Under the pieces are notes generated by a model. The model saw only the letters and a list, made by a program, of their open reading frames with translations. It did no database searches and was not told the DNA's origin. Of a DNA stretch of 64,000 nt, positions 4,943-52,945 are shown piece by piece. Within the stretch, counting starts at the first letter, position 1, and the number at the start of each line of letters is the position of its first letter. The position numbers were made by a program, and so were the translations under genes. Source of the DNA: Cytophagales bacterium (GTDB taxonomy: Bacteria; Bacteroidota; Bacteroidia; Cytophagales; VRUD01); contig VRUD01000012.1 of the NCBI GenBank assembly GCA_019456305.1, positions 3,531-67,530 of the forward strand. Reading direction: 5' to 3'.

Positions 4943-6340
4943 ATGAATATTTCAAAACTATCTGTTTTTTCATTGCTCTCTATATTGATCTATACCAGCA
5001 GTTGCAAAACCATAAAACCCCAACGCCCCGAAAGCTCAACCTTTACAAAAACCCCTGCAAAAGAACTATCCGTTATCAATCTCCCTGTTGAATACGCTCT
5101 GCTAAATATGGAAAAAGAAATTAACGAAGCGTTTCAGGGTGAGATTTACAGAGATGACAGCTTTGAAGATAATGAAGGCGACAATCTTATGGTAAGGGCC
5201 TCCAAAATAGAAGCTATTACCTTATCAGCAAAAGGAAATGTGATCAGCACTGATATTCCGTTGCATATTTGGTGTAAGGTTCGCTGGCAGGAGAAAATAC
5301 TGGGAATTAAATTAACCAAAATCGCAGAGACCGATTTTGACATTGTATTTAAATTTAACACCCAATTTAATGTTGATAAAAAATGGAACTTAATTACCAA
5401 AACCGCATCAAGTGGGTATGAGTGGATTAAAAAACCGCTCATAAAGCTCGGGCCAATACATATCCCTGTTACAAACCTGATAGAAGATGTGATCAAAGAA
5501 AAAATGGATGAGGTGGCAAAGGAAATTGATGATGATATAAAAAATTCATTTGATGTAAGAGCGTATATAGATAGTCTTTGGTTAAATATTCAAGAACCCA
5601 TATTGATCAATGAAGATTATAACTTATGGTTAAAATTAGAACCTGTAAGTTTTGTTATGACCCCCATAAAAGGCTGGCAGAAGAAAATTTACCTCAATTT
5701 TGGGATCAATACATCGCTTGAAATCGTAACGGGAAAAAAACCACTTTATATTGTCAATACCTCACTTCCGGACCTGATGATCAGAAAGGATATTGATAAA
5801 AAATTCCATCTGGTGTTGGCAGCAGAGATCTCCTATGCCGATGCTTCTAAGCTGATGTCCGATAAGATGATCGGGGAGGTTTACGAATTTAAAAATAAAA
5901 AAATAAAAATTGAAGCGGTAGATATCTATGGCAGTGGTAAAGACCTTATTCTAATGCTTGACTTTTCGGGAGATATTAAAGGCACGGTCTATTTCAGTGG
6001 TTTGCCGGAGTATGATTCATTAACCAGTACAATATCAATTGAAAGCTTTGATTTTGATGTAAAGACTACAAAAGCATTGCTTAAATTAGCAGATTGGCTC
6101 CTTCATGCAGGTTTCAAACATAAGATCAAAACAGCGTTAAAATTCCCGCTAAAAGACAAAATTTCCGAAATAAATCAATTAATTGAAAGCAGCATCAAAA
6201 GCAATCAGATAGGAGAATCTATTATATTGAATTGTGATATCACTGATATATTTCCCAAAGAAATATACCTTACTCCCGAGGCTATTAAACTGATGTTAAT
6301 CATAGACGGGGAGGCGCAGTTACTAATAAAAGATTGGTGA
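4943..6340 (+). CDS. lipoprotein of unknown function (possibly DUF4403 family)
   Basis: Signal/lipobox ...LIYTSSC; 465-aa uninterrupted ORF. The family name is from memory only. Confidence 0.6.
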   Translation: MNISKLSVFSLLSILIYTSSCKTIKPQRPESSTFTKTPAKELSVINLPVEYALLNMEKEINEAFQGEIYRDDSFEDNEGDNLMVRASKIEAITLSAKGNVISTDIPLHIWCKVRWQEKILGIKLTKIAETDFDIVFKFNTQFNVDKKWNLITKTASSGYEWIKKPLIKLGPIHIPVTNLIEDVIKEKMDEVAKEIDDDIKNSFDVRAYIDSLWLNIQEPILINEDYNLWLKLEPVSFVMTPIKGWQKKIYLNFGINTSLEIVTGKKPLYIVNTSLPDLMIRKDIDKKFHLVLAAEISYADASKLMSDKMIGEVYEFKNKKIKIEAVDIYGSGKDLILMLDFSGDIKGTVYFSGLPEYDSLTSTISIESFDFDVKTTKALLKLADWLLHAGFKHKIKTALKFPLKDKISEINQLIESSIKSNQIGESIILNCDITDIFPKEIYLTPEAIKLMLIIDGEAQLLIKDW

Positions 6341-6345
6341 AAAAA

Positions 6346-6394
6346 CGCATAGAGCATAGCGCATAGCGCATAGAGCATAGAGCATAGCACATAG
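6346..6394. repeat. (RGCATAG)x7 heptamer array
   Basis: cgcatag agcatag cgcatag cgcatag agcatag agcatag cacatag, starting 6 nt after the stop of the 4943..6340 CDS. Puts TAG in all three frames. Confidence 0.95.
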
Positions 6395-6400
6395 TGCCAT

Positions 6401-6431
6401 AACCCCGCACTTAAATTTATGTGCGGGGTAA
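6401..6431 (+). terminator. stem-loop after the 4943..6340 CDS (possible terminator, no clear U-tract)
   Basis: aaccccgcac-ttaaatttat-gtgcggggt; 9-10 bp GC-rich stem. Confidence 0.35.
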
Positions 6432-6524
6432 CAAACAACCATTAACTAATAACTAAACACTAAACTACTTAATTGCTTTATATGTTTTACAACTTGACCT
6501 AAGCAGATAGGCAGTTAATTTTAT

Positions 6525-6532
6525 TATCTTTG
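6525..6532 (+). promoter_or_regulatory. candidate -7 promoter box (TAnnTTTG)
   Basis: TATCTTTG only 5 nt upstream of the ATG at 6537. This argues that the real start of the downstream gene is further in (6618). Confidence 0.35.
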
Positions 6533-6601
6533 CATAATGTTAAAACACCTCAAAAACGCAGAGCGCAAATCGCATAGCGGTGAACCCCGCCTGTGGCGGG
6601 G

Positions 6602-6637
6602 CCATGCTCTATGCTCTATGCGCTATGCGCTATGCGC
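6602..6637. repeat. (CTATGCK)x5 heptamer array, inverted relative to 6346..6394
   Basis: ccatgct ctatgct ctatgcg ctatgcg ctatgcg, preceded by hairpin ccccgcctgtggcgggg (6586-6602). Puts ATG in all three frames. Confidence 0.95.
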
Positions 6638-7268
6638 TTTATTTATTATTACTTCAGCGAAGTGTCATAGCCAATCCTTTAAGATCGCCAAGTTCAAATA
6701 CAATGGCGGGGGCGATTGGTATGCTAACAAAACCTCTCTGCCTAACCTGATCGCATTTTGTAATAAGAACCTAAAGATGAACATTGCTGCTGAGGAAGAT
6801 ATTGTAGAAGCAGGCAGTCAGGAATTATTTTCATATCCATTTGTACATATGACAGGCCATGGTAATGTGGTATTCTCAAAACAAGAAGCATACAACCTGA
6901 GAAAATACCTTATAGGCGGAGGCTTTCTCCATATTGATGATAATTACGGGCTGGATAAATTTATCCGGGTGGAAATGAAAAAGGTTTTCCCTGAACTGGA
7001 TTTTGTGGAGCTGCCTTTTGATCATCCTATCTACCATCAGAAGTATAATTTTCCAAAAGGTTTGCCCAAAATCCATGAGCATGACGGCAAGCCGCCACAA
7101 GGGTTTGGCCTGATCTATGAAGGACGCCTCGTTTGCTTTTATTCATACGAATGTGACCTGGGCAATGGCTGGGAAGACCAGGTTATTTATAATGATCCTG
7201 AAGAGATAAGACGACAAGCACTGAAAATGGGAGCCAATATTCTCTCATTTGCGTTGACCGATTATTAG
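6618..7268 (+). CDS. DUF4159 domain protein
   Basis: FKIAKFKYNGGGDWYANKTSLPNL...YPFVHMTGHGNVVFSKQEA..LRKYL..GGFLHIDDNYG. I prefer the start at ATG 6618 (MRYALCALFIITSAKCHSQ, signal-like). The maximal ORF begins at 6537. Confidence 0.75.
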   Translation: MRYALCALFIITSAKCHSQSFKIAKFKYNGGGDWYANKTSLPNLIAFCNKNLKMNIAAEEDIVEAGSQELFSYPFVHMTGHGNVVFSKQEAYNLRKYLIGGGFLHIDDNYGLDKFIRVEMKKVFPELDFVELPFDHPIYHQKYNFPKGLPKIHEHDGKPPQGFGLIYEGRLVCFYSYECDLGNGWEDQVIYNDPEEIRRQALKMGANILSFALTDY

Positions 7269-8144: not shown

Positions 8145-8150
8145 ATTAAG

Positions 8151-8241
8151 CATGGCGCATAGCGCATGGCGTCCACCCTCATTCAAGCTCTTTTTCCCCG
8201 CCAACTGGCGGGGCCATGCGCTATGCGCTATGCGCTATCGC
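8151..8241. repeat. GCATAG-family inverted repeat with central hairpin
   Basis: catggcgcatagcgcatggcg ... ccccgccaactggcgggg (8196-8213) ... gccatgcgctatgcgctatgcgctatcgc. The last codons and the TAG stop of the aminotransferase (..AIAHSA*) are made of repeat units. Confidence 0.9.
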
Positions 8242-9684
8242 TCCCAAAATAACTTTACACGCTTCTTTGATCTCTTCTTTTGTAATAATTAAAGGCGGTG
8301 TTATTCTCATAGCGCTGTCACAGTAAAGAAACCAATCAACAAAAACCCCGGTGGTGTCAGAAACCCTACCTGACTGTTCCGTATTTCTCGGGGAGATACA
8401 TTTATCAATGATAGATTTTAATTGATCATAAGATTCAAACTGAAGCGCCATCATCAGTCCTTTACTTCTGATAGCCTTGATTTTGGGATGTGCTAATAAT
8501 TCGATGAATAGTCTTTCTTTTTCCGCTACTACAGCCCCCCCCAACCCCCCCGAAGGAGGGGCTTTGCCAACGCTTTTGCCAGCCCCCCCTAAATCCCTCC
8601 TGCCACTATTTCTTACCGAATCGGTGAATGGGTGAATGGGTGAATCGGTGAATCGCTTCGTTTTCCTGTTCTCCGTTTCTCCGATTCTCCGGTTCTCCGA
8701 TTCAGGGGGGCTTGGAGTTAGAGGGGGGAGGGGGGGGCTGGCAGTTGGGCTGATTAGTTCCAAAGAAGCGAGCCCTGCAGCACAGCAGACGGGATGACCA
8801 CCAAAAGTAGTGATATGTCCTAAAACAGGATTGGTTTTTAAGACAGACATAATTTCCTTTGAAGAGATAAAAGCGCCAAGCGGCATACCCCCTCCGATCG
8901 CTTTGCCGCAGCATAAAATATCCGGCACAACGTCAAAATGCTCAAAAGCAAACAGCAATCCTGTTCTGCCAAAGCCTGTTTGAACCTCGTCAAAAATTAG
9001 AAGTGTGCCCGACTCGCTGCATTTGTTTCTCAGTGTTTTTAAATATTCTTTGTCAGGTATTATTACACCCGCTTCTCCCTGGATGGGCTCTATAATAACC
9101 GCTGCAATTTTATCTGTGATATATTCCAGATCTTCAGTGTCATTGAATTTTATATGTCTTACCTCCGGTAATAATGGCCTGAACGCTCTTTTAAACACTT
9201 CGCTCCCGTTTAATGATAAGGCGCCATGCGTAGAACCGTGATAGGCATTTTGAAGTGAAATAATTCCAGTTCTGCCGGTAAATCTTTTGGCTAATTTTAT
9301 CGCCCCTTCTACCGCTTCACTACCGGAATTAACAAAATAGGTGCATTCTAATTGAGCAGGAAGATTTTCAGCAAGCTTTTTGGCAAGCATTACCTGTGGC
9401 GTTTGCACCAATTCTCCGTAAGCCATCAGGTGAAGATATTTATCAAGCTGCTCCTTGATCGCTTTTATAACTTCTGGATGACGGTGGCCTACATTATTCA
9501 CGCCAATCCCGGATATCAGGTCTATGTACTTTTTCCTACTTGCCCCGCTTGTCCCGGTCCTATCGGGTTTTTTGGGGGCTTTTCCAAACATATATACTCC
9601 TTCTGCGTAGTCAATCTCAAGCATAGAAGGAAAATCAGAAGTTTGGGCTAAATGGTTCAGGAAATCTTGTTTTATTGTGTTCAT
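8221..9684 (-). CDS. class-III (acetylornithine/GABA-type) PLP aminotransferase carrying in-frame repeat insertions
   Basis: ISGIGVNNVGHRHPEV, FVNSGSEAVEGAIKLA, LIFDEVQTGFGRTG, CCGKAIGGGMPLGAF, GGHPVCCAAGLA. ATG at 9684. Repeat-derived segments at 8530-8757 and 9543-9567. Confidence 0.85.
   Translation of the reverse strand: MNTIKQDFLNHLAQTSDFPSMLEIDYAEGVYMFGKAPKKPDRTGTSGASRKKYIDLISGIGVNNVGHRHPEVIKAIKEQLDKYLHLMAYGELVQTPQVMLAKKLAENLPAQLECTYFVNSGSEAVEGAIKLAKRFTGRTGIISLQNAYHGSTHGALSLNGSEVFKRAFRPLLPEVRHIKFNDTEDLEYITDKIAAVIIEPIQGEAGVIIPDKEYLKTLRNKCSESGTLLIFDEVQTGFGRTGLLFAFEHFDVVPDILCCGKAIGGGMPLGAFISSKEIMSVLKTNPVLGHITTFGGHPVCCAAGLASLELISPTASPPLPPLTPSPPESENRRIGETENRKTKRFTDSPIHPFTDSVRNSGRRDLGGAGKSVGKAPPSGGLGGAVVAEKERLFIELLAHPKIKAIRSKGLMMALQFESYDQLKSIIDKCISPRNTEQSGRVSDTTGVFVDWFLYCDSAMRITPPLIITKEEIKEACKVILGAIAHSA
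8583..8744. repeat. 162-bp GC-rich palindromic element, intragenic copy A (copy B at 27238..27399)
   Basis: About 158/162 identical to 27238..27399. Built from C-run/G-run termini and 8-mer arrays (GGTGAATS)x4 and (CTCCGNTT)x3 that can pair. Confidence 0.95.
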
Positions 9685-9700
9685 GTATTTGTGTGTTAGT

Positions 9701-9740
9701 GTGTTCACGTGAGCACTTGAACATATGAACACGTGAACAC
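9701..9740. repeat. CACGTG-containing palindrome (gtgttcacgtg ... cacgtgaacac)
   Basis: 17 nt upstream of the aminotransferase ATG. A related 85-bp palindrome lies 10 nt upstream of the MuiA-like gene (48632..48716). Confidence 0.85.
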
Positions 9741-26600: not shown

Positions 26601-27649
26601 CCTGGATAATCTATGCACGGTTGATTTGGTGATTTGATCTTATATTGAATATTATCATCACCGGTAACCGTATTATTGTTGATCATTACTTCTTTGGAAG
26701 ATAAGACACGGTAATTGTTCTTTCCAAAAACTTTTTGCAGGTTAATGTTATGATCCGGAATATTAAATGCTGAACAAAACTCACTATCATTCAATAAAGT
26801 CAATACTGAATAAATATGCGAATTAATTGCAAAATCATTAACCGTATTGTCATTCCGGGCAGGGCGAAAGCCAGTGGCTTTCGAGCCAGCCTGAGGGATG
26901 GAGCCAATGGGAATGGCTGAGCGAGGAATCTCCTTTGGATTTACCACCGAGTTCTCGGGGCGCGCGATTTTTGAATCCACGTGTAATTCACTCAACTCAA
27001 CAATAATTGTGATATAATCCACTGGATTTGCAGTGTGAATATTTTTGGAGTTTATTAGTGACGAAAATGCCGCTGCATAAGCCAAAATATTCTGACGAGG
27101 GTCGTTGATAATATCCTCTACAGCTATTCCTGAAAGGTTTGAAACAAGCTCCAGGTTATTTCTAAAATATCCTTTACCATCCAGCACAAGCCCCATTACA
27201 CCGTAGTAAGCAGGCAGACCTGTGCAGCTTAGAGCAGTCCCCCCTAAATCCCTCCTGCCACTATTCCTTACCGAATCGGTGAATGGGTGAATCGGTGAAT
27301 CGGTGAATCGCTTCGTTTTCCTGTTCTCCGTTTCTCCGATTCTCCGGTTCTCCGATTCAGGGGGGCTTGGAGTTAGAGGGGGGAGGGAGGGGCTGGCAGG
27401 GATAATATGCCTGATTCGGGTATTGGTATAGGCAATGGCTTCTAATAATCCCCCGGGTATGTCGGGATAATTAAGATATGCTTCCTGAAAATAATTTTTG
27501 TATTGTGTATCGGGTGCAACTGAAGGAGCAGCCCCCATTGAGCGGATTGCTTGTGCAAAACACTCTCCGCTCCAACCAAAGCCATGTGTGTAGCAGGCAA
27601 ACAACTGGTTTATGAACAATAATAAAAGTAGTAAGATTTTTTGTACCAT
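23648..27649 (-). CDS. large secreted multidomain protein: unknown N-terminal domain, PGRP/Amidase_2 N-acetylmuramoyl-L-alanine amidase, 2 CUB-like, FN3, LamG-like, FN3, T9SS CTD
   Basis: Amidase_2: VVIHDIEGSY..AISWFQNP.ANVSAHYV......Q.V....KGWHVG..N.YTIGLEHEG. CUB-like: DSGGP.SNY.....FWLISPAGAASVTLTY.SFDLE..WDYLYIYDG (twice). CTD: VYPNPFDESITISYRL...GVYVLKL. ATG at 27649. Confidence 0.85.
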   Translation of the reverse strand: MVQKILLLLLLFINQLFACYTHGFGWSGECFAQAIRSMGAAPSVAPDTQYKNYFQEAYLNYPDIPGGLLEAIAYTNTRIRHIIPASPSLPPLTPSPPESENRRIGETENRKTKRFTDSPIHPFTDSVRNSGRRDLGGTALSCTGLPAYYGVMGLVLDGKGYFRNNLELVSNLSGIAVEDIINDPRQNILAYAAAFSSLINSKNIHTANPVDYITIIVELSELHVDSKIARPENSVVNPKEIPRSAIPIGSIPQAGSKATGFRPARNDNTVNDFAINSHIYSVLTLLNDSEFCSAFNIPDHNINLQKVFGKNNYRVLSSKEVMINNNTVTGDDNIQYKIKSPNQPCIDYPGVTWVPADPSNYSSRAGTLISAVVIHDIEGSYAGAISWFQNPAANVSAHYVLRSLDGQITQMVCEVDKGWHVGSENPYTIGLEHEGYAGQPGWYTQVMYQASADLVKDICNDYGINPLRTYSGPACSGSSSSCLLGGCIKIKGHQHYPNQTHTDPGIYWDWKYFYQLINDSMVVTTYTASSDTFYDSGGPASNYADDERSFWLISPAGAASVTLTYLSFDLETDWDYLYIYDGTTVDDPLTGVYTGTNSPGTITAQSGSFLIEFRSDCNTNNPGWEAAWTSDTIPLACPLPTNLTESNMAAFTTDLTWDTVAGALGYLLKYKRNLDASWTYVNVSSNNYTLTGLASNAIYYWQVSTLCVADSSGFGGSSFNTPAAQSQTTTLCSGLFRDSGGELGTYFNNEDHLFTISPAGAASITVSFTFFDIELNWDYLYIHDGPGTASPQIPGSPFTGTNSPGTIVSSGGDITFRFTSDGSAVNPGWDAIWSCNLDSVDFLPPATSISNPGFFETTDFMATFTDADNPGGSGLDLQFYQALDLNGVEWRANDNNGFFNDHFDIAIHPDWTDTAGIWVINSGAIHQTDESQGNTNIYASLAQGSTQIYLYHWQANMNGSGVNRRSGIHFFSDDGSLPNRGNSYFVYYRVDQDKCQIYKVTNDTWAIQTNDPCILDPGVWYDFKVIFNPATGEIKGYRDDQLVSSWIDPSPYSTGSYISLRTGNANVMYDDLKVYKVRANSELITLGSAAANDIRFQNAGPATPSCKIVSIVKDSAENWSAPAGLSVNIDWTTPADIAAINDGAAADIDTTYIAGELTANWAPSTDTNSGIAKYRYAIGTMPGDSDIVGWTDNGIVTLTDTGLTLIVGQSYYFSVKAENGAGLLSNITSSDGQVFQNPTAINEFRVSGFGLRVYPNPFDESITISYRLNEPGHIVLNIFDLPGKKIAILVDQYQFAGDHMIELDDNVVKMMKGVYVLKLSNGVSSGYVKLIKH
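27238..27399. repeat. 162-bp GC-rich palindromic element, intragenic copy B
   Basis: See 8583..8744. Same orientation and same reading frame within a different gene. Confidence 0.95.
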
Positions 27650-37500: not shown

Positions 37501-40500
37501 GTTTTTCCTGAACCAACAGCTTCTATTGCCGGAACCAATGTTACCTGTAATGGAGTTTGTAACGGTGCAGCAGACCTTACAGTTACAGGAGGAACAGGGC
37601 CATATACCTGGCTGTGGAGCCCTGGTGGAGAAATTACCGAAGATCTGATAGGATTATGTCCCGGAACTTATGATGTCACCGTTACTGATGTGAATGGCTG
37701 CCAGGACAGCGCTGTAATTGTGATTACAGAACCGCCTTTATTATCCTTGTTAATTTCAAAAACCGACCTTATCTGCAATGCCGTATGTAACGGAACGGCT
37801 GACCTAACCGTTACAGGAGGTACTACACCTTATACATATTTGTGGTCGCATGGTCCAACAACCCAGGATGTAACCGGGCTTTGTGCCGGTACCTACCAGG
37901 TTGTTGTTACCGATTCGAATGGCTGCCAGGATTCTATTTCTGTAGTAATTACGGAGCCCACAGCATTATCACTATCCGTTTCCGGAACCAACCTTATTTG
38001 TAATGGCATGTGTGATGGTGCAGCAGATCTCACTGTTATAGGCGGTACTACCCCTTATACTTATGCGTGGTCGCATGGCCCTGCAACCCAAGATGTAACG
38101 AGTCTTTGTGCAGGTACTTACGAGGTGATTGTAACTGATTCCAATAGCTGTCAGGATTCCATTGATGTTATTATAACTGAACCTCCCCTTCTCACAGTTG
38201 CTGCTACAAGCACCGATCTGCTTTGTAATGGAGTATGTGATGGCACTGCTTCTGCTGCCGTTTCGGGTGGAACAAGTCCCTACACCTACCAATGGGATGA
38301 TCCTGCAGGTCAAACTACCGCAATTGCTGATAGCCTGTGTGCAGGAACATACCAGGTAGTGGTTACCGATACCAATGGCTGCCAGGATTCTGCAACTGTT
38401 ATTATCAACCAACCTCCTGTTTTAAGTACACTCATTATTGGCGACAGTCTAAATTGTAATGGTGTGTGCGATGGTGCGGCAGATCTGACCGTTGTCGGTG
38501 GAACGCCACCCTATACCTATTTATGGTCAAACCTTGAAACTACCCAGGATATATCCGGTTTATGTGCAGGTCTGCATACTGTTGATGTTTTTGATGTGAA
38601 TGGGTGCAATATGTTTGATGCTATAGTCATCGGTGAACCTCCTTTGCTAACGGCAAGCATTGTTGATTCAAATGTCAGTTGTAATGGAGTTTGTGATGGC
38701 GCTGCAGATGTGACCGTTTCAGGCGGCATACCCTCGTATTCCCACTCCTGGTCAAACCTTCAAACCACCGAAGATATAACGGCTTTATGTGCCGGTACTT
38801 ATGCTGATACCATAAGGGATGCCAATGGATGTACGGTGATCGTAAGTACAGTGATCAGCGAACCTACAGCACTTGCAACCTTAATAGCAGGTACGGATAT
38901 TACTTGTAATGGTGTCTGTGACGGTGCTGCCGACTTAACCGTTACCGGTGGTACTACACCCTATACCTTTTCGTGGTCAAATGGACCTACAACTGAAGAT
39001 ATTTCGGTGTTGTGTGCCGACACATTTAATCTTGCCGTCACAGATTCCAACGGATGTACCATTTCAGATTTGGTGATCATAAATGAGCCTCCGGTTCTTT
39101 TAACAACCATTTCCGGAACAAATGTCACTTGTAATGGAGCTTGTAACGGATCGGCAGACCTTACTGTTACCGGAGGCACACCCGGCTATTCTTATTTGTG
39201 GAGCCCCGGTGGAGAAACTTCGCAAGACCTGATGGGAGGCTTGTGTCTCGGTACCTATGATGTAACCGTTACCGATTTGAATGGCTGCCAGGATAGCGCC
39301 ACAGTGATCATTACCGAACCTTTGGTTCTTTCAACTGCCGTTGCCGGAACTAATGTTAGTTGTAATGGATTTTGTAATGGATCGGCAGACCTGACCGTTA
39401 CAGGCGGCACACTGCCTTATTTGTTCTTATGGTCAAACCTTCAAACCACAGAAGATATTTCCGGCTTGTGTGCGGATACGTTTAGCGTTACGGTTACCGA
39501 TTCCAATCTATGTACAGGTTCAGAAACTGTTATTATCACGGAACCCCCTCTGCTGACGGCTAATGTAGTTGGTACCAATATTAGCTGCAACAGCGTCTGT
39601 GACGGATCAGCAGACCTTACCGTTTCAGGGGGTACGCTGCCTTATTCCTATCTATGGTCCAATACTGATACTACAGAAGATATATCCGGTTTATGTCCGG
39701 GAACTTATAGCGTAACGGTCACGGATTCTAATGGATGTACAGCTTCAGACAGTGCAATTGTTATTGAGCCAACCCCTATTGCGCTTACCGTTTCAGGCAC
39801 GGATGTAACCTGCAATGGCGCCTGTGACGGACAAGCAAGCGCCAGCGTCTCTGGCGGAACTACCCCTTATACTTACCAATGGAATGATCCATTTTTACAA
39901 ACCACACCAACTGCTGATAGCTTGTGCGCAGGTACTTACCAGGCGCTCATAACCGATGCAAACGGCTGCCAGGATTCTGCAACCGCTGCCATCATTGAGC
40001 CTCCGGTATTAACTGCTTCTACCGCAGGAAATGATGCAAGCTGTAATGGCGTATGTGACGGTGATGCTACTGTAACTCCTTCAGGTGGTACATCACCCTA
40101 TACCTATCAATGGGATGATCCCTCATTCCAGATAAACGACACGGCAACCGGTTTATGTGCGGATACAGTCAACGTAACAGTGACAGATTCCAACGGATGT
40201 ACTTTTGATACAAGCTATACGGTAAATGAACCAGCTGCCATGACGCTAACCCCCGGTAGCGTAGATGCCACCTGCGGGATAGCAAATGGAGAGGCATCAG
40301 TGTTCGTTTCAGGCGGTACGAGCCCTTATACCTATTTGTGGTCACCGGGTAGTCAAACTACCGATACGATTACAGGACTATCTGCAGGCGCCTATACGGT
40401 TGTGGTTACAGACGCAAATCTTTGCAGTGATTCAATAACCATATCCGTAAACGATGCCGGAGCTCCCACTGCCAGTATAGTAGATAGTATAAATGTTAGT

Positions 40501-43500
40501 TGTAATGGAGGCAATGATGGCAGCGCTACAGCGACAGGTTCTGGTGGTGTGAGACCCTTCACCTGGTCTTGGTCACCTCCTGCTGTAAGTACTGATTCAT
40601 TTGCTACAGGTTTACAAGCCGGAACTTACACAATAACCATCACTGATGATTTAGTATGCGTAGCCACAGCAACAGTAACCATATCAGAACCACTTGTCCT
40701 GATAGCTTCCATTACTTCAAATGTGCCGGTGGCTTGTAATGGTGATAGTACAGGCAGCGCTACAGTTTCTGTTTCCGGTGGTACACCGGGTTATACCTAT
40801 TCCTGGTCGCCTTACGGTGGAACGGGATCCATTGCCGTAAACTTGATTGCAGGAACTTATACGGTTACCGTTACCGATACAAACGGATGTGATACAACCG
40901 CCTCTGTTACCATCAGCGAACCTCCCCCTCTTACAACAGCTATTACAGATACAAGTGTAAGCTGTAACGGTACCTGTGACGGTGCAGCCGATCTGACCGT
41001 TACCGGAGGAACTTTTCCTTATATATTTTCATGGTCCAATACAGCTACTACTGAAGATATAGCCGGTTTATGCGCTGATACTTTTTATATTTTGGTTACC
41101 GATCTTAATTTATGTACTATATCAGACAGCGTGATCATCACTGAACCTGATTCACTTATTGCCGGCATAGCCGGTACGAATGTGAGTTGTAAAGACTCTT
41201 GTAATGGTGCAGCAGATCTAACGGTTTCAGGAGGCACACTTCCCTATTCCTGGTTATGGTCAACTTCAGATATAATTGAAGACCTGGCCGGCTTATGTGC
41301 AGCTACTTATAGTGTTACTGTTACGGATTCCAACGGATGCACCGTTTCGGAAAGCATCATTATCAGTGAACCTGGCGTACTTGCCACCGGCATTACAGAC
41401 ACGAATGTGAGTTGTTTCGGAGCTTGTGACGGGTCAGCAGATCTGACAGTGGCAGGCGGCACCTCGCCTTATACATACCTCTGGTCAAACGGATTTACAA
41501 CCCAGGATATTTCAGCATTGTGCCCTGATACTTTTATCGTAACCGTTACCGATACCAATTTATGTACAATATCAGATACTGCGATCATTACACAACCTAA
41601 CGTACTTACCGCAGCCATAGCCGGAACAAATGTAAGTTGTAACTTAGCTTGTGACGGTACAGCAATCCTGACTGTAACGGGTGGCACACTGCCAACTACT
41701 TTTTTATGGTCAAACGGAGCAGGAACGAAGGATGTTTTTAGCTTATGTGCCGATACTTACAACGTTACGGTTACCGATGCCAATGGTTGTACTGCTGCGG
41801 ATACGGTGATCATCTCTGAACCTTTAGCGCTTACTGCATCCATAGCAGGAACAAATGTAAGCTGTAACAGCGCCTGTGATGGTGTGGCTGACCTGACCGT
41901 TACAGGTGGTACAGCGCCTTATGATTACCTGTGGTCAAACCTTGCTACCATAGAAGACATATCCGGCTTATGTGCTGATACCTACAACGTTACCGTTACC
42001 GATACGAATGGATGTACAGCTTCAGATACTGTGATCATTACTGAACCATTGGCGCTAACCGCAGCCATAGCCGGAACAAATGTAAGTTGTAACGGAGATT
42101 GTAATGGTGCAGCAGACCTAACCGTTGCAGGCGGTATTTTACCCTATTCTTATTCATGGACAAGTGGAGATAGTATTGAAGATCTAATAAACTTATGTGC
42201 AAACGTTTATGATGTTACCGTTACCGATAGCAACGGATGCACGGTTATCACCGGCATTGTAATTAGTGAACCTGCTGCGCTTACTTCCAACATTGCAGGA
42301 ACAGATCTTAGTTGTAATGGCGCCTGTGACGGAGCAGCGGATCTAAGCGTAATAGGCGGCGTCATTCCATACACTTATTCCTGGTCAAGTGGAGATTCTA
42401 CAGAAGACCTGACCAATATTTGCGCTGACACTTTTATTGTTACTGTTACAGATTCCATTGGATGTACATTATCTGATACCATCATCATTACCGAACCTGC
42501 AATACTCATAGCAACCGATTCAGCTACGAATGCCAGTTGTAACGGAGGTTCTGACGGGGCAATTGATCTTACTGTTACCGGTGGTACGCTTACCTATACC
42601 TATGTATGGTGCCACGGGCCCACGAGCGAAGATGTAACCAACCTGATTGCCGGCAATTATTGTGTTACTGTGACAGATGGTAATGGGTGTACAGCTACAG
42701 ATAGTGTAACCATCAGCGAACCCGATTCGTTAGTATTGACAACCTCAACGATTGACGCAAATTGCGGTCAGAATGACGGACAAGCTTCTGTGATCGTTAC
42801 AGGCGGTGTTGTTCCATATTCTTACTCATGGAATACCTTTCCTGTGCAAGCAAATGATACTGCTTTTAACTTGCTATCAGGAATTTATACAGTTACGGTT
42901 ACTGATTCCAATATTTGTACACAAACAGCCACTGTAACAATTAGTGATTTAGGTGGCGGTACGCCAACAATTACCTTGAATAAGAATGAAACCTGTTTTA
43001 ATTTTCCTTGTGATGGGTCAGCCACTGTTACAATGACAGGGGGTACGCCTGGTTTTACTTATTTATGGGACAATTCAGATCCTGATTCTACTGCAACAAC
43101 GTTATGTGCAGACACACATACAGTAACGGTGACTGATGCAGTGGGCTGTGTTTCTATTGCACAGGTGGTCATTACTAAACCAGATGCAATAAATATTAAC
43201 ATTTCTTCCTCTGGCGCTCTTTGTAATGGCGATAGTTCCGGTGTGGCAACAGCCACAGTTACAGGAGGCACGCCAGGATATACATATTCATGGACGTCTT
43301 ACGGAGGGAATGATTCAATTGCCGACAGCTTGATTACCGGGGTTTATACGCTTGTTGTTTTGGATGCTGCCGGATGTTTTGCTGCGGGCGCTACAGTCAT
43401 TGGTGAACCGCCTCCTTTAACTGCAACGGTTACAGTCACGAATGCTTCCTGTAATGGCTACTGTGATGGTTTAGCCACGGTAACACCCTTAGGAGGCACA

Positions 43501-50324: not shown

Positions 50325-51080
50325 TTAATAGTAATAATACTCCTCCGGCACTTTCTTGTAAATTGGTATCAGCCAGCCAAATTTTATCCCCCATAGCGTA
50401 TCAAATCTTTTCGTTTCGTCCTTTGCCATGGTATCAAAATTAAAATCCCGCCTGCTTTTGGTCCATGCCTGGGTAAATTCAATATTGATGAAAAAGTTAA
50501 TCCGCTTTTTTTTATCCAGGTAGAGGTAGCCAAAACTTTCCGTTATCGCTGATCCATTGGTCAGTCTGTCATAGCCTTTAATATAATCTCCGGCTATTTG
50601 TGGTACTGTCCGGGTAATATCCTGTATCTTTATTTTATGTTGCAACAAGCCATATCCTATCAATACAAAGCATCCTGAGTTGGCATTAGCCTTTAATATT
50701 TTATAATTCCATAATTTACCAACTTTTATAAAAGGTAATTTCATTCCTCTTTCAGAGATCCTTACTTCGGCAAACAACCCATCGCTCCCAATGATCTCCC
50801 CACTTTCTGTTTTTATACCGTCTAAAATATTATCCTCCTTTACATTGTCACCCCATAAAAAATTGCCATCAATGCCAATTATCCAGTTGCTTTTCGTTTT
50901 GAAAAAGAACCCTCCTCCAATCTCTGCATTATTGCCAAATCTGTCCGCCATATCACCTCCGGGTAATTCATAGCCTGTATTAACAAAAAAAACAGGTATA
51001 TTCGCAGCAGTGTCCTTTATTTGCGCAACCAGGGTAAAGGGGGAAAGCGCATAGAGCATAGAGCATAGCGCATAGCGCAT
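50325..51080 (-). CDS. hypothetical exported/outer-membrane-like protein; start uncertain
   Basis: I prefer ATG 51080 (MRYALCSMLYALSPFTLVAQ, signal-like, encoded by CTATGCG repeat units). The maximal ORF extends to 51245 entirely through repeat DNA. Confidence 0.55.
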   Translation of the reverse strand: MRYALCSMLYALSPFTLVAQIKDTAANIPVFFVNTGYELPGGDMADRFGNNAEIGGGFFFKTKSNWIIGIDGNFLWGDNVKEDNILDGIKTESGEIIGSDGLFAEVRISERGMKLPFIKVGKLWNYKILKANANSGCFVLIGYGLLQHKIKIQDITRTVPQIAGDYIKGYDRLTNGSAITESFGYLYLDKKKRINFFINIEFTQAWTKSRRDFNFDTMAKDETKRFDTLWGIKFGWLIPIYKKVPEEYYYY

Positions 51081-51228
51081 GGTGTATAGCATATGGCGCA
51101 TGGTGTATAGCATATGGCGCATGGCGGGCATATGCCCGACCGTATGGTCGCATGACGTATGGCGAATAACGCATAGAGCAAGGACCATAGCATTGAACGC
51201 CATGCACTTTGCTCTATGCGCTATGCTC
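51047..51228. repeat. GCATAG-family array plus a 21-bp tandem duplication and palindromes
   Basis: gcgcatagagcatagagcatagcgcatagcgcat; gcgcatggtgtatagcatatg x2 (51075-51116); ggcatatgcc; ...gctctatgcgctatgctc. Confidence 0.9.
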
Positions 51229-51252
51229 ATAACAACTTTGGTCATTTCAAAA

Positions 51253-51260
51253 CAAAATTA
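51253..51260 (-). promoter_or_regulatory. candidate -7 promoter box for the 50325 gene
   Basis: Minus strand reads TAATTTTG. Confidence 0.25.
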
Positions 51261-51440: not shown

Positions 51441-51605
51441 TTTAGTTCATGGTTTTTGGTTATTAGTTTTAGTTATTTGGTTATTAGTTTTAGTTCATTG
51501 GTTCAATAGTTTGCTAATGCCGGACTCATGGCACGACCAACAAACTAAAAAACTATAACCATAAACTATCAAACCATAACCAAAAACTAACAACCAAAAA
51601 CTAAA
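51441..51605. repeat. about 165-bp imperfect palindrome of AT-rich (TTAGTTT/GGTTAT) units upstream of ugd
   Basis: Left arm tttagttcatggtttttggttattagttttagtt... pairs with right arm ...aaccataaccaaaaactaacaaccaaaaactaaa. GC-rich loop ctaatgccggactcatggcacgacc. Confidence 0.85.
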
Positions 51606-51631: not shown

Positions 51632-52945
51632 ATGAATATAGCAGTAATTGGAACCGGTTACGTAGGCCTGGTTACAGGAACCTGTCTGGCAGAAACAGGT
51701 AATAGTGTAATATGTGTTGATATTGATGTGGAAAAGGTCCGGAAAATGAAACAGGGCATCGTCCCGATTTATGAACCTCACCTGGATATTATTTTCAAAA
51801 GAAATCTAAATCAAGGAAGATTAAGCTTTACAACCAGCCTTGAAAAAGCTGTAGCAGAAGCCAGCATCATATTTTTAGCATTACCCACACCTGCTGATGA
51901 GGATGGTTCGGCAGACCTCTCTTATGTTCTTGGTGTTGCTGAAGGGTTAGGGAAGCTTATTAATGATTATAAGGTGATCGTGGATAAGAGTACCGTACCA
52001 GTTGGAACGGCTGAAAAAGTAAGAAAAGCCGTATCAAAAAATGCTAAAAACGATTTCGATGTGGTTTCAAATCCAGAATTTTTGAGAGAGGGATATGCCG
52101 TTGATGATTTTATGAAGCCTGACAGAGTAGTCATCGGTACGAATTCAGAAAGGGCAAAAAAGATCATTGAAGAGCTTTATAAACCATTCGTTCGCCAGGG
52201 TAACCCCATCATTTTTATGGACGAAAAGTCTGCAGAGCTTACGAAATATGCTGCAAATGCTTTTCTGGCCACTAAAATCTCTTTCATGAATGAGATTGCC
52301 AATTTGTGTGAAAAAATGGGCGCTGATGTTGATATGGTTAGAAGTGGAATTGGAGCGGACAATCGTATAGGAAAGCGTTTCCTGTTTGCTGGAATTGGTT
52401 ATGGCGGGAGTTGTTTTCCAAAAGACGTCCGGGCGCTTGCTAAATCTGCCAGTGAATACCAGTATGATCCCAAAATCCTTAAAGCAGTAATGTCGGTCAA
52501 TGAAACGCAATCCCTTGTAATTGTGACAAAGATAAAAGAATATTACCAGGGTCATCTGAAGGGAAAGAAAATAGCGATCTGGGGGCTGGCATTTAAGCCG
52601 GATACCGATGATATCCGGGAGGCTCCTGCTTTAATTGTCATTCGTGAATTATTAAAAGATGGCGTAAAAATAACAGCTTTTGATCCTGAAGCAATGGATA
52701 ATGTAAGGAAAAAAGGGATTAAAATTACGTTTGCCAATGATCAATATGGTGCTCTTGAAAATGCTGACGCATTGATCATAGCTACGGAATGGTCAATATT
52801 CAGAACACCCGATTTTGATAAAATTGTAAAGCTCATGAAACAAAAAGTGATCTTCGATGGCAGGAATTTATACGATACTGATCAAATGAAAAAATTGGGG
52901 TTTTACTACAATAGTATTGGTAGGGAAGTTGTAAAAAGGAAATAA
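51632..52945 (+). CDS. ugd: UDP-glucose 6-dehydrogenase
   Basis: MNIAVIGTGYVGLVTGTCLAE.GN.V.CVD.D..KV..M..G..PIYEP.L; GGSCFPKDV; WGLAFKP.TDD.REAP. Confidence 0.9.
   Translation: MNIAVIGTGYVGLVTGTCLAETGNSVICVDIDVEKVRKMKQGIVPIYEPHLDIIFKRNLNQGRLSFTTSLEKAVAEASIIFLALPTPADEDGSADLSYVLGVAEGLGKLINDYKVIVDKSTVPVGTAEKVRKAVSKNAKNDFDVVSNPEFLREGYAVDDFMKPDRVVIGTNSERAKKIIEELYKPFVRQGNPIIFMDEKSAELTKYAANAFLATKISFMNEIANLCEKMGADVDMVRSGIGADNRIGKRFLFAGIGYGGSCFPKDVRALAKSASEYQYDPKILKAVMSVNETQSLVIVTKIKEYYQGHLKGKKIAIWGLAFKPDTDDIREAPALIVIRELLKDGVKITAFDPEAMDNVRKKGIKITFANDQYGALENADALIIATEWSIFRTPDFDKIVKLMKQKVIFDGRNLYDTDQMKKLGFYYNSIGREVVKRK

Follow-up and report, generated by a model that had tools for sequence, protein, structure and literature searches.

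Two arrays of a 7-nt unit, inverted with respect to each other, stand on either side of the start region of a DUF4159 gene in the DNA studied here, and the second of them is read as part of the gene. The question that this locus raises is whether such an array supplies the start codon and the signal peptide of the protein, as the earlier note on this DNA had claimed for this gene and for a second one (50325-51245, minus strand), or whether it lies inside a gene that starts elsewhere. The window, by which we mean the whole stretch of 64,000 nucleotides that was analysed, is part of a 4.25-Mb Cytophagales genome with 37% G+C.

A lineage-specific family of heptamer hairpins

The three-unit pattern of the GCATAG/CTATGC family, GCATAGNGCATAGNGCATAG, was matched 18 times in the window with no more than two mismatches, against 0.01 matches expected from dinucleotide shuffles. 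In the whole genome the unit family occupies 144 loci, and its typical copy is a hairpin in which a (NGCAWRG)n 5' arm is followed by a core and then by a (CYWTGCN)n 3' arm; the core is often ccccgcc-N3-4-ggcgggg, and either a small GC hairpin or another core is found there. The GCATAG-type arm, which bears TAG, precedes the CTATGC arm in every two-armed locus, and this order is identical on either strand. Predicted folds of these elements range from -45 to -80 kcal/mol, with z-scores of -3 to -7. Period-7 arrays number 1,403 in this genome and fall in 257 unit families; such an array is followed within 250 nt by the reverse-complement unit in 105 cases and by the same unit in 25.

The GCATAG/CTATGC unit is lineage-specific. 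Its pattern had 97 matches in this genome and 0-1 per genome in 30 other Cytophagales, all of which come from other families of the order, and arrays of the unit are present in metagenomic contigs of close relatives. The close relatives used throughout (L021, L022, L123, L124 and L125) are metagenomic contigs that were recovered by protein identity.

A repeat of 7 nt places its triplets in every reading frame, so that TAG on one strand, or ATG on the other, occurs in all three frames; this had been pointed out in the earlier note, and both the arithmetic and the ORF translations bear it out. The CTATGC 3' arm contains no stop in any frame, and its three frames are cyclic shifts of a single, mostly hydrophobic heptapeptide, LCAMRYA, or LCSMLYA where the T-variant unit is present.

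Two separate elements at the DUF4159 gene

The features of this region are as follows, with the evidence for each in brackets.

6346-6394, plus strand: lone F-type array (RGCATAG)x7, with TAG in all three frames (sequence, TRF, pattern matches)
6404-6429, plus strand: GC-stem hairpin ccccgcac...gtgcgggg (sequence, fold)
6525-6532, plus strand: promoter box TATCTTTG, a match to the Bacteroidota -7 box TAnnTTTG (conserved in L021 and L022)
6537-7268, plus strand: DUF4159 ORF from the conserved ATG, 243 aa (ORF, Pfam, relatives)
6557-6638, plus strand: palindromic heptamer-array element, in frame in the DUF4159 presequence (sequence, TRF, ORF, fold)
6618-6620, plus strand: in-frame ATG within the right arm, the start given in the earlier note and the weaker alternative (sequence, ORF, fold)

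TRF reported one period-7 array at 6346-6394 (7.0 copies, 88% matches) and another at 6604-6638 (5.0 copies, 96% matches). The former begins 5 nt past the TGA stop (6338-6340) of the DUF4403 gene and has no right arm adjoining it. The latter belongs to the element at 6557-6638, which consists of a left arm (6557-6579), a core GC hairpin (6585-6601) and a right arm (CYATGCK)x5 (6602-6638), has a predicted fold of -45.3 kcal/mol (z = -3.0) and encodes ..AERKSHSGEPRLWRGHALCSMRYALCA; its left arm is degenerate and holds a single TAG, which is out of frame. The earlier note had treated 6346-6394 and 6602-6637 as an inverted pair. Both arrays are real, but they are not two arms of one repeat, because the array at 6602-6638 has its own left arm at 6557-6579, with which it pairs around 6585-6601.

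Comparison with the relative L021 points the same way. After the DUF4403 stop, where the window has 6346-6394, L021 carries a complete 49-nt hairpin of the GCATAG family, and this hairpin ends upstream of the conserved promoter box, just ahead of a block common to L021 and the window, AATTAATTTTATTATCTTTGCAYAATGTTAAAACAC. We also considered a single inverted repeat that had been split by an insertion (6346-6394 plus 6602-6638), and rejected it because the conserved promoter and ATG lie between the two arrays, because the hairpin upstream in L021 is complete, and because the second array has a left arm of its own. MITEs are recognised by terminal inverted repeats together with a target-site duplication; the arms here are inverted, and a comparison with L022 and L021 showed no flanking direct repeat at 6557 and 6638, at element boundaries that are not fixed to the base.

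Two further differences between the relatives were observed here. A 120-nt stretch of the window (6395-6514) that holds the ccccgcac..gtgcgggg hairpin and an AT-rich run of AACTAA-like heptamers is missing in L021. Upstream of its DUF4159 gene, L022 has an intergenic (TTGACAR)n hairpin with a cccgagtactcggg-like core (L022:1-100), in the same position as in the window and with an unrelated unit.

A probable leaderless start for the DUF4159 gene

The sequence TAnnTTTG is the sigma-A -7 box of Bacteroidota, with its G at -5 (PMC6847099; PMC9723704), and this position of the G is also the rule in F. johnsoniae (PMC6847099). When 4 nt separate the box from an ATG, transcription would therefore start on the A of that ATG. 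In this genome TAnnTTTG is followed by the first ATG of a long ORF at spacing 4 in 30 unrelated genes, compared with 1-8 genes at spacings of 0-3 and 5-10, and the proteins of the spacing-4 class have normal-looking N-termini throughout. TAnnTTTG-N4-ATG thus looks like the signature of a distinct class of leaderless mRNAs in this genome, and it could serve as a practical rule for the lineage, marking leaderless genes and resolving ambiguous starts. The DUF4159 gene is a member of this class: 4 nt separate its TATCTTTG box from the ATG at 6537.

The earlier note had placed the start of the gene at the array ATG at 6618, which is indeed in frame with DUF4159, and it had correctly read MRYALCA as translated repeat. 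Its start codon fares less well, since the ORF is open from 6537 and this upstream ATG is conserved in L021 and L022. Between 6537 and the Pfam DUF4159 domain, which begins at residue 49 of the ORF opened at 6537, the only in-frame ATG, GTG or TTG codons are those at 6537 and 6618; between array and conserved mature domain there is no start codon in this gene, and none in the 50325 gene.

The relatives show what stands at this site with the element and without it. In L022 (DUF4159 protein 88% identical) the sequence TATCTTTG-CATC-ATG leads directly into MFKLIRIFFYILICFGSSYSQ|SFKIAKL; no array is present, the ATG is the sole possible start, and MFKLIRIFFYILICFGSSYSQ following it is a normal signal peptide. 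In L021 (91% identical) box and ATG are likewise present, and they are followed in frame by another array, (YCATGCAK)x5, and by a hydrophobic core of its own. This array of an 8-nt unit lies at L021:425-485 in the DUF4159 presequence, and the JGI gene start is an ATG inside it. In the window, the ATG at 6537 is followed by the hairpin element in frame and then by LFIITSAKCHSQ|SFKIAKF. All 27 distant DUF4159 orthologues have ordinary signal peptides of 20-27 residues, which end in ..AQ or ..GQ just before KIAKLKY.

Based on these comparisons, translation of the DUF4159 gene most likely starts at the conserved ATG 6537, which would be at the first base of a leaderless mRNA; we read it in this way because the box is conserved, because the spacing is that of the TAnnTTTG-N4-ATG class, and because the array-free L022 has the same ATG. 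A start at 6537 gives a presequence of 46 residues in which the array provides about five residues of the hydrophobic core: the right arm encodes ..HALCSMRYALCA, which is the YALCA of a 12-residue uncharged core, YALCALFIITSA. The non-array remainder of that core is about seven residues (LFIITSA), compared with 10-16 residues at this place in array-free relatives. Hence the suggestion in the earlier note that array residues serve as signal-peptide core is upheld, as the array lies within the presequence and only those seven or so core residues are not its own. A start at 6618 is possible as the weaker alternative; it would give a 19-residue signal, MRYALCALFIITSAKCHSQ, which is more canonical-looking than the 46-residue version, and in the predicted fold this ATG sits in an unpaired bulge and is not clearly hidden.

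The 50325 gene carries the same kind of element

51046-51228, minus strand: compound GCATAG/CTATGC element, in frame in the presequence of the 50325-51245 gene (TRF, ORF, fold, L125)
51243-51260, minus strand: conserved start region of the same gene, comprising the TAATTTTG box at 51253-51260, 7 nt, and the ATG at 51243-51245 (relatives)

The product of this gene belongs to a beta-barrel-like outer-membrane protein family, and a Pfam search of the protein found no family. Arrays of the GCATAG/CTATGC family lie at 51046-51126 and 51198-51228, the 3' arm (51046-51080, minus strand) encodes MRYALCSMLYAL, and the ORF is open from the ATG at 51245 on the minus strand through the whole element. The presequence that starts there is unusual, with 75 residues and two hydrophobic stretches. 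The 7-nt spacing between box and ATG is not an enriched spacing class genome-wide.

In this case too the upstream start is shared by relatives that differ in their arrays. L124, whose protein is 83% identical, lacks the array; its box and ATG are those of the window and stand 7 nt apart, and its signal peptide is MINNTICEQRRIVILTIILLYPFILVAQ. L125 (81%) begins alike, with MTKVVMSIAHRAK.., and also carries the element, which has diverged in its middle and differs by a net 3 nt in length but is still open and in frame. In L123, the closest relative (92%), the upstream region has been replaced, and a three-unit array reads ALCAILYAL with no in-frame ATG, so that the start must be upstream of the array. 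All seven distant orthologues have ordinary signal peptides, in the 20-27-residue range of both gene families. Moreover, in the array-bearing versions the non-array remnant of the core is just SPFTL(I/V)A, about seven residues (SPFTLVA in the window), and from this short remnant it appears that array residues replace a lost native core, which in L124 is IVILTIILLY.

The 50325 gene thus likely behaves as the DUF4159 gene does, with translation from the ATG at 51245 reading through the element. The earlier note had likened the two genes to each other; the array-encoded presequence holds for both, and the donated start is unlikely, given the conserved ATG at 51245 and the array without in-frame ATG in L123. 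A comparison with array-free orthologues had been proposed there as a check, and its outcome is divided in the same manner: the upstream ATG that L022 and L124 share speaks against a donated start, and the longer cores of array-free relatives speak for array residues that stand in for part of the core.

Another repeat is found close by in the window. At 51442-51604 a 21-nt unit forms inverted arrays, (TTAGTTATAGTTATTTGGTTA)n and its complement, just upstream of a UDP-glucose dehydrogenase-like gene that starts at 51632.

Array arms in presequences across the genome

With gene models that were crude ORF-based calls, we found 46 frames in the genome in which a CTATGC-type array leads into an ORF of 100 codons or more, and by inspection 19 of them have a signal-peptide, lipoprotein or membrane-anchor segment after the array. 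A non-array ATG stands in frame upstream of the element, before any stop, in 13 of these 19 if, as a strict filter, A or T is required after the ATG, and in 16 when judged by eye. For the other two frames of the same loci, an upstream in-frame ATG was present in 2 of 38, both inside the element (Fisher p about 9e-7). The upstream non-array ATGs usually read MK.., ML.. or MS.., with lysine or arginine nearby. If array ATGs were sufficient as starts, there would be no reason for the older upstream ATG to be kept in frame. Elements with two stops able to block the frame were open in 3 of 5 cases, too few to be significant alone.

Three genes are different. In C96, C98 (MltG-like) and C77 (a 910-residue outer-membrane-type protein), stops within the element itself close the upstream frame, and ahead of the membrane segment only the ATG in the last 3'-arm unit can serve as a start. 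Either initiation at an array ATG occurs in these genes, or these ATGs are native and the array merely abuts them. At least 13 genes of cytoplasmic type have an evident native start that follows the end of the array by 1-6 codons. The TAACTGA repeats of Beggiatoaceae are similar in this respect, most of them being found no more than several nucleotides upstream of a start codon (PMC4679880).

Array-encoded signal-peptide residues are thus supported by the comparisons, and a donated start codon mostly is not. A general donation of start codons, of the kind that the earlier note had proposed for two genes, would not be expected to leave an upstream ATG in frame in 13-16 of the 19 genes, compared with 2 of the 38 control frames.

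Arrays at gene 3' ends

8150-8242: complete element between convergent genes (TRF, ORF, fold)

The opposite arm acts on the other end of genes. Of 154 F-type (GCATAG) arrays, about 30 end an ORF of at least 100 aa with the TAG of their first or second unit, and the tails of these ORFs read ..SA*, ..HSA* or ..HGA*. More broadly, arrays of 7-9-nt units start between -21 and +10 nt from the stop in about 470 of 3,787 crude gene models.

The element at 8150-8242 is an example in the window. It has a left arm at 8150-8171, which begins 5 nt past the TAA of the 7275-8144 gene, a core hairpin at 8196-8213, and a right arm at 8214-8242 that overlaps the end of a class-III aminotransferase gene and gives it its TAG (8221-8223, minus strand); TRF arrays were reported at 8150-8171 and 8216-8242. 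The predicted folds of the two strands are -55.4 and -53.5 kcal/mol, and the element fills the convergent intergenic gap exactly. The C-terminus of the aminotransferase is ..ILGAIAHSA*, of which the last residues, AHSA, are array-encoded, compared with ..ILSCIG*, ..ILEAIDA* and ..ILEAID* in orthologues; the extension is therefore about three residues. The earlier note was right that this gene ends ..AIAHSA-TAG within the array. Its wider statement that arrays are co-opted as gene termini holds insofar as they supply TAG stops to about 30 genes, but 'co-opted' overstates the case, as tolerated insertions fit. Supply of stop codons by arrays is true, of an already known kind, and small in effect.

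Other repeats are also read as protein in this part of the genome. Relative to its orthologues the aminotransferase (8221-9732, minus strand) has three in-frame insertions, of about 13 aa near residue 50, of about 70 aa, and of about 13 aa near the C-terminus; the one of about 70 aa consists of 8-mer arrays (8618-8703), with a copy at 27273-27358. At 37810-38243 and 41538-42239 the window holds 225-nt tandem repeats (about 1.9 and 3.1 copies, 70-73% matches), which are probably repeated protein domains of a large surface protein.

Proposed explanation and alternatives

We propose, with a probability of about 0.68, that the GCATAG/CTATGC copies are neutral or selfish hairpin elements at permissive sites, and that the DUF4159 gene starts at 6537 and the 50325 gene at 51245, with the elements being read through. 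Hairpin-forming simple-sequence elements would spread or turn over fast in this lineage, because orthologous sites in relatives hold different units or none, and they would be kept where they are harmless. Three kinds of place may tolerate them: intergenic positions that directly adjoin stop and start codons; the 3'-terminal codons of a gene, since the 5' arm stops all three frames; and the signal-peptide region, since the 3' arm is stop-free and its translations (LCAMRYA or LCSMLYA) are mostly hydrophobic. Signal peptides accept changes of length and sequence and are cleaved off, which would make an array harmless there. In the DUF4159 gene, the mRNA from the TATCTTTG box would begin at ATG 6537 and the ribosome would read through the element. 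This proposal takes as established the structure and positions of the family, the conserved upstream ATGs and boxes, the array-free, ancestral-like state in relatives and the in-frame bias; we infer from them which ATG the ribosome chooses, that the long presequences still direct export, and that the arrays arrived by insertion or by in-situ array turnover.

If so, simple-sequence hairpin repeats appear to find a safe harbour in cleavable signal peptides, and generic repeat DNA can encode part of an export signal that works. This would bear on the fast turnover of signal peptides, on how repeat-rich genomes tolerate thousands of arrays, and on the annotation of gene starts, where callers choose array ATGs, as JGI did in L021.

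The alternative that survives best, although we consider it unlikely, is that a working start (6618; about 51080) and the n- and h-regions of the signal peptide both come from the 3' arm, in which case the upstream ATG would be a 5' UTR relic or untranscribed. Presequences from these two positions would be 19-20 residues long and orthologue-like, with an MR n-region, an uncharged core of 12-16 residues and an xxQ/AQ end; moreover, ATG 6618 is unpaired in the predicted fold, the JGI call for L021 begins at an array ATG, and C96, C98 and C77 have no start other than that of the last array unit. However, the upstream ATG and box are conserved in relatives and provide the sole start in those that are array-free, and 6537 stands exactly at the leaderless spacing. 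If the upstream ATG were unused, one would not expect its frame to be kept in 13-16 of the 19 genes, compared with 2 of the 38 control frames, nor across the diverged middle of the L125 element, and the L123 array has no in-frame ATG to donate. Bacteroidota initiate without Shine-Dalgarno sequences and favour unstructured, A-rich initiation regions (PMC6847099), whereas ATG 6618 sits in a structure of -45 kcal/mol.

A related and more doubtful idea is that the ATG-bearing, stop-free hydrophobic arm works as an all-frame N-terminus cassette, from which signal peptides and membrane anchors would arise or be restored time and again. Whether the reading frame is disturbed by an insertion, by the slip of one unit or by a rearrangement upstream, one of the array ATGs would always be in frame, and translation could restart there with a hydrophobic core already provided. 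Candidates for such events are C96, C98 and C77, and also L123, in which the upstream region has been replaced and the array-encoded core retained.

We regard it as improbable that the arrays form contingency loci, in which gain or loss of a 7-nt unit would switch an exported protein off and on or move initiation to another array ATG. The repeat does lie in the leader-coding region, its unit length is not a multiple of 3, and relatives vary in array content at the same site. Against this, the arrays are imperfect and have no more than 5 units, the genes are conserved and of housekeeping type across the order (28/31 genomes), the family is mostly intergenic, and the differences among relatives are not simple changes in unit number and preserve the frame.

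Least probable of all is that functional RNA or DNA hairpins were selected at gene boundaries, as terminators or REP-like mRNA-stabilising 3' hairpins, with the signal-peptide copies as accidental spill-over: arrays do stand tightly at stop codons, 8150-8242 fills its convergent gap exactly at about -55 kcal/mol on both strands, and the heptamer arrays of Xanthomonas and Nostoc, most of which are transcribed, cluster no further than 50 bp from stops (PMC4692102), but no U-tract follows the hairpins, many copies are upstream of start codons or within coding regions, the unit families are unrelated and number in the hundreds, and the different or missing units at orthologous sites argue against a site-specific selected function.

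Comparison with known systems

Heptanucleotide repeats are known as the TAACTGA repeats of Beggiatoaceae, cyanobacteria and some Bacteroidetes (MacGregor 2015, PMC4679880) and as the GGGAATC / GGGGAYT arrays of Xanthomonas and Nostoc (Rehm et al. 2015, PMC4692102). Like these long simple-sequence repeats, and like cyanobacterial STRR, the repeats described here are tandem 7-nt units far above chance (5-11.6 copies by TRF) at hundreds of loci per genome, which are mainly noncoding and intergenic and lie a few nucleotides from start or stop codons. Forward TAACTGA repeats likewise close every reading frame, and they overlap the stop codon of the gene upstream (PMC4679880). In Xanthomonas some repeats overlap stop codons, and convergent inverted pairs able to form stem-loops are frequent (PMC4692102), as they are here. 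The present family differs in its unit, which is another sequence and lineage-specific, and in its fixed polarity, with the stop-bearing arm followed by the ATG-bearing arm around a GC hairpin core. It also differs in that one arm is translated within signal peptides, of which the TAACTGA and Xanthomonas/Nostoc papers make no mention; the term 'signal peptide' has 0 occurrences in PMC4692102. A literature search for palindromic repeats in signal peptides found no paper describing heptamer hairpins that are translated as signal peptides.

REP/REPIN-RAYT systems share with this family short dispersed palindromes at gene ends, but the elements here have no conserved GTAG-type head and their arms are tandem repeats. 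The genome encodes 5-7 Y1_Tnp proteins, and no GCATAG arrays flank the Y1_Tnp genes at the five clear ones, which have other small hairpin families instead; we therefore rejected a link between a RAYT (Y1 transposase) and the GCATAG arrays. These five Y1 (IS200/RAYT-like) genes (C110:30173-30517, C97:26165-26503, C154:5468-5812, C83:16786-17130 and C83:36072-36416) are each flanked by their own small hairpin repeats, for example agccctgaaagggc, tcgctcctaacggagcga and aaccgttttaacggtt, and look like REP-RAYT-type pairs.

The CTCTT repeat in the leader of Neisseria opa genes is a feature of a single-locus family with proven slipped-strand on/off switching. As in opa, the repeat inside the signal-peptide coding region here has a unit length that 3 does not divide, and it is translated as a hydrophobic part of the signal. 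In contrast to opa, the element here is generic and genome-wide and occurs in unrelated housekeeping-type genes.

The Rickettsia palindromic elements (RPE), to which we liken this family by behaviour only, are likewise dispersed palindromes that are found both between genes and in frame in intact genes. Here too the same palindrome is intergenic and in frame in intact conserved genes (6557-6638, 51046-51228), and orthologues without the element exist (L022 and L124, and the 27 and 7 distant orthologues), which fits an insertion of the element into an older gene. Both are carried at structurally permissive places, and the aminotransferase here holds further in-frame repeat insertions. The organisms and the repeat architecture are unrelated, however, and the arms of the present elements are tandem heptamers that change length in steps of 7 nt. 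Unlike those of RPE, the in-frame copies here concentrate in cleavable presequences and not in surface loops.
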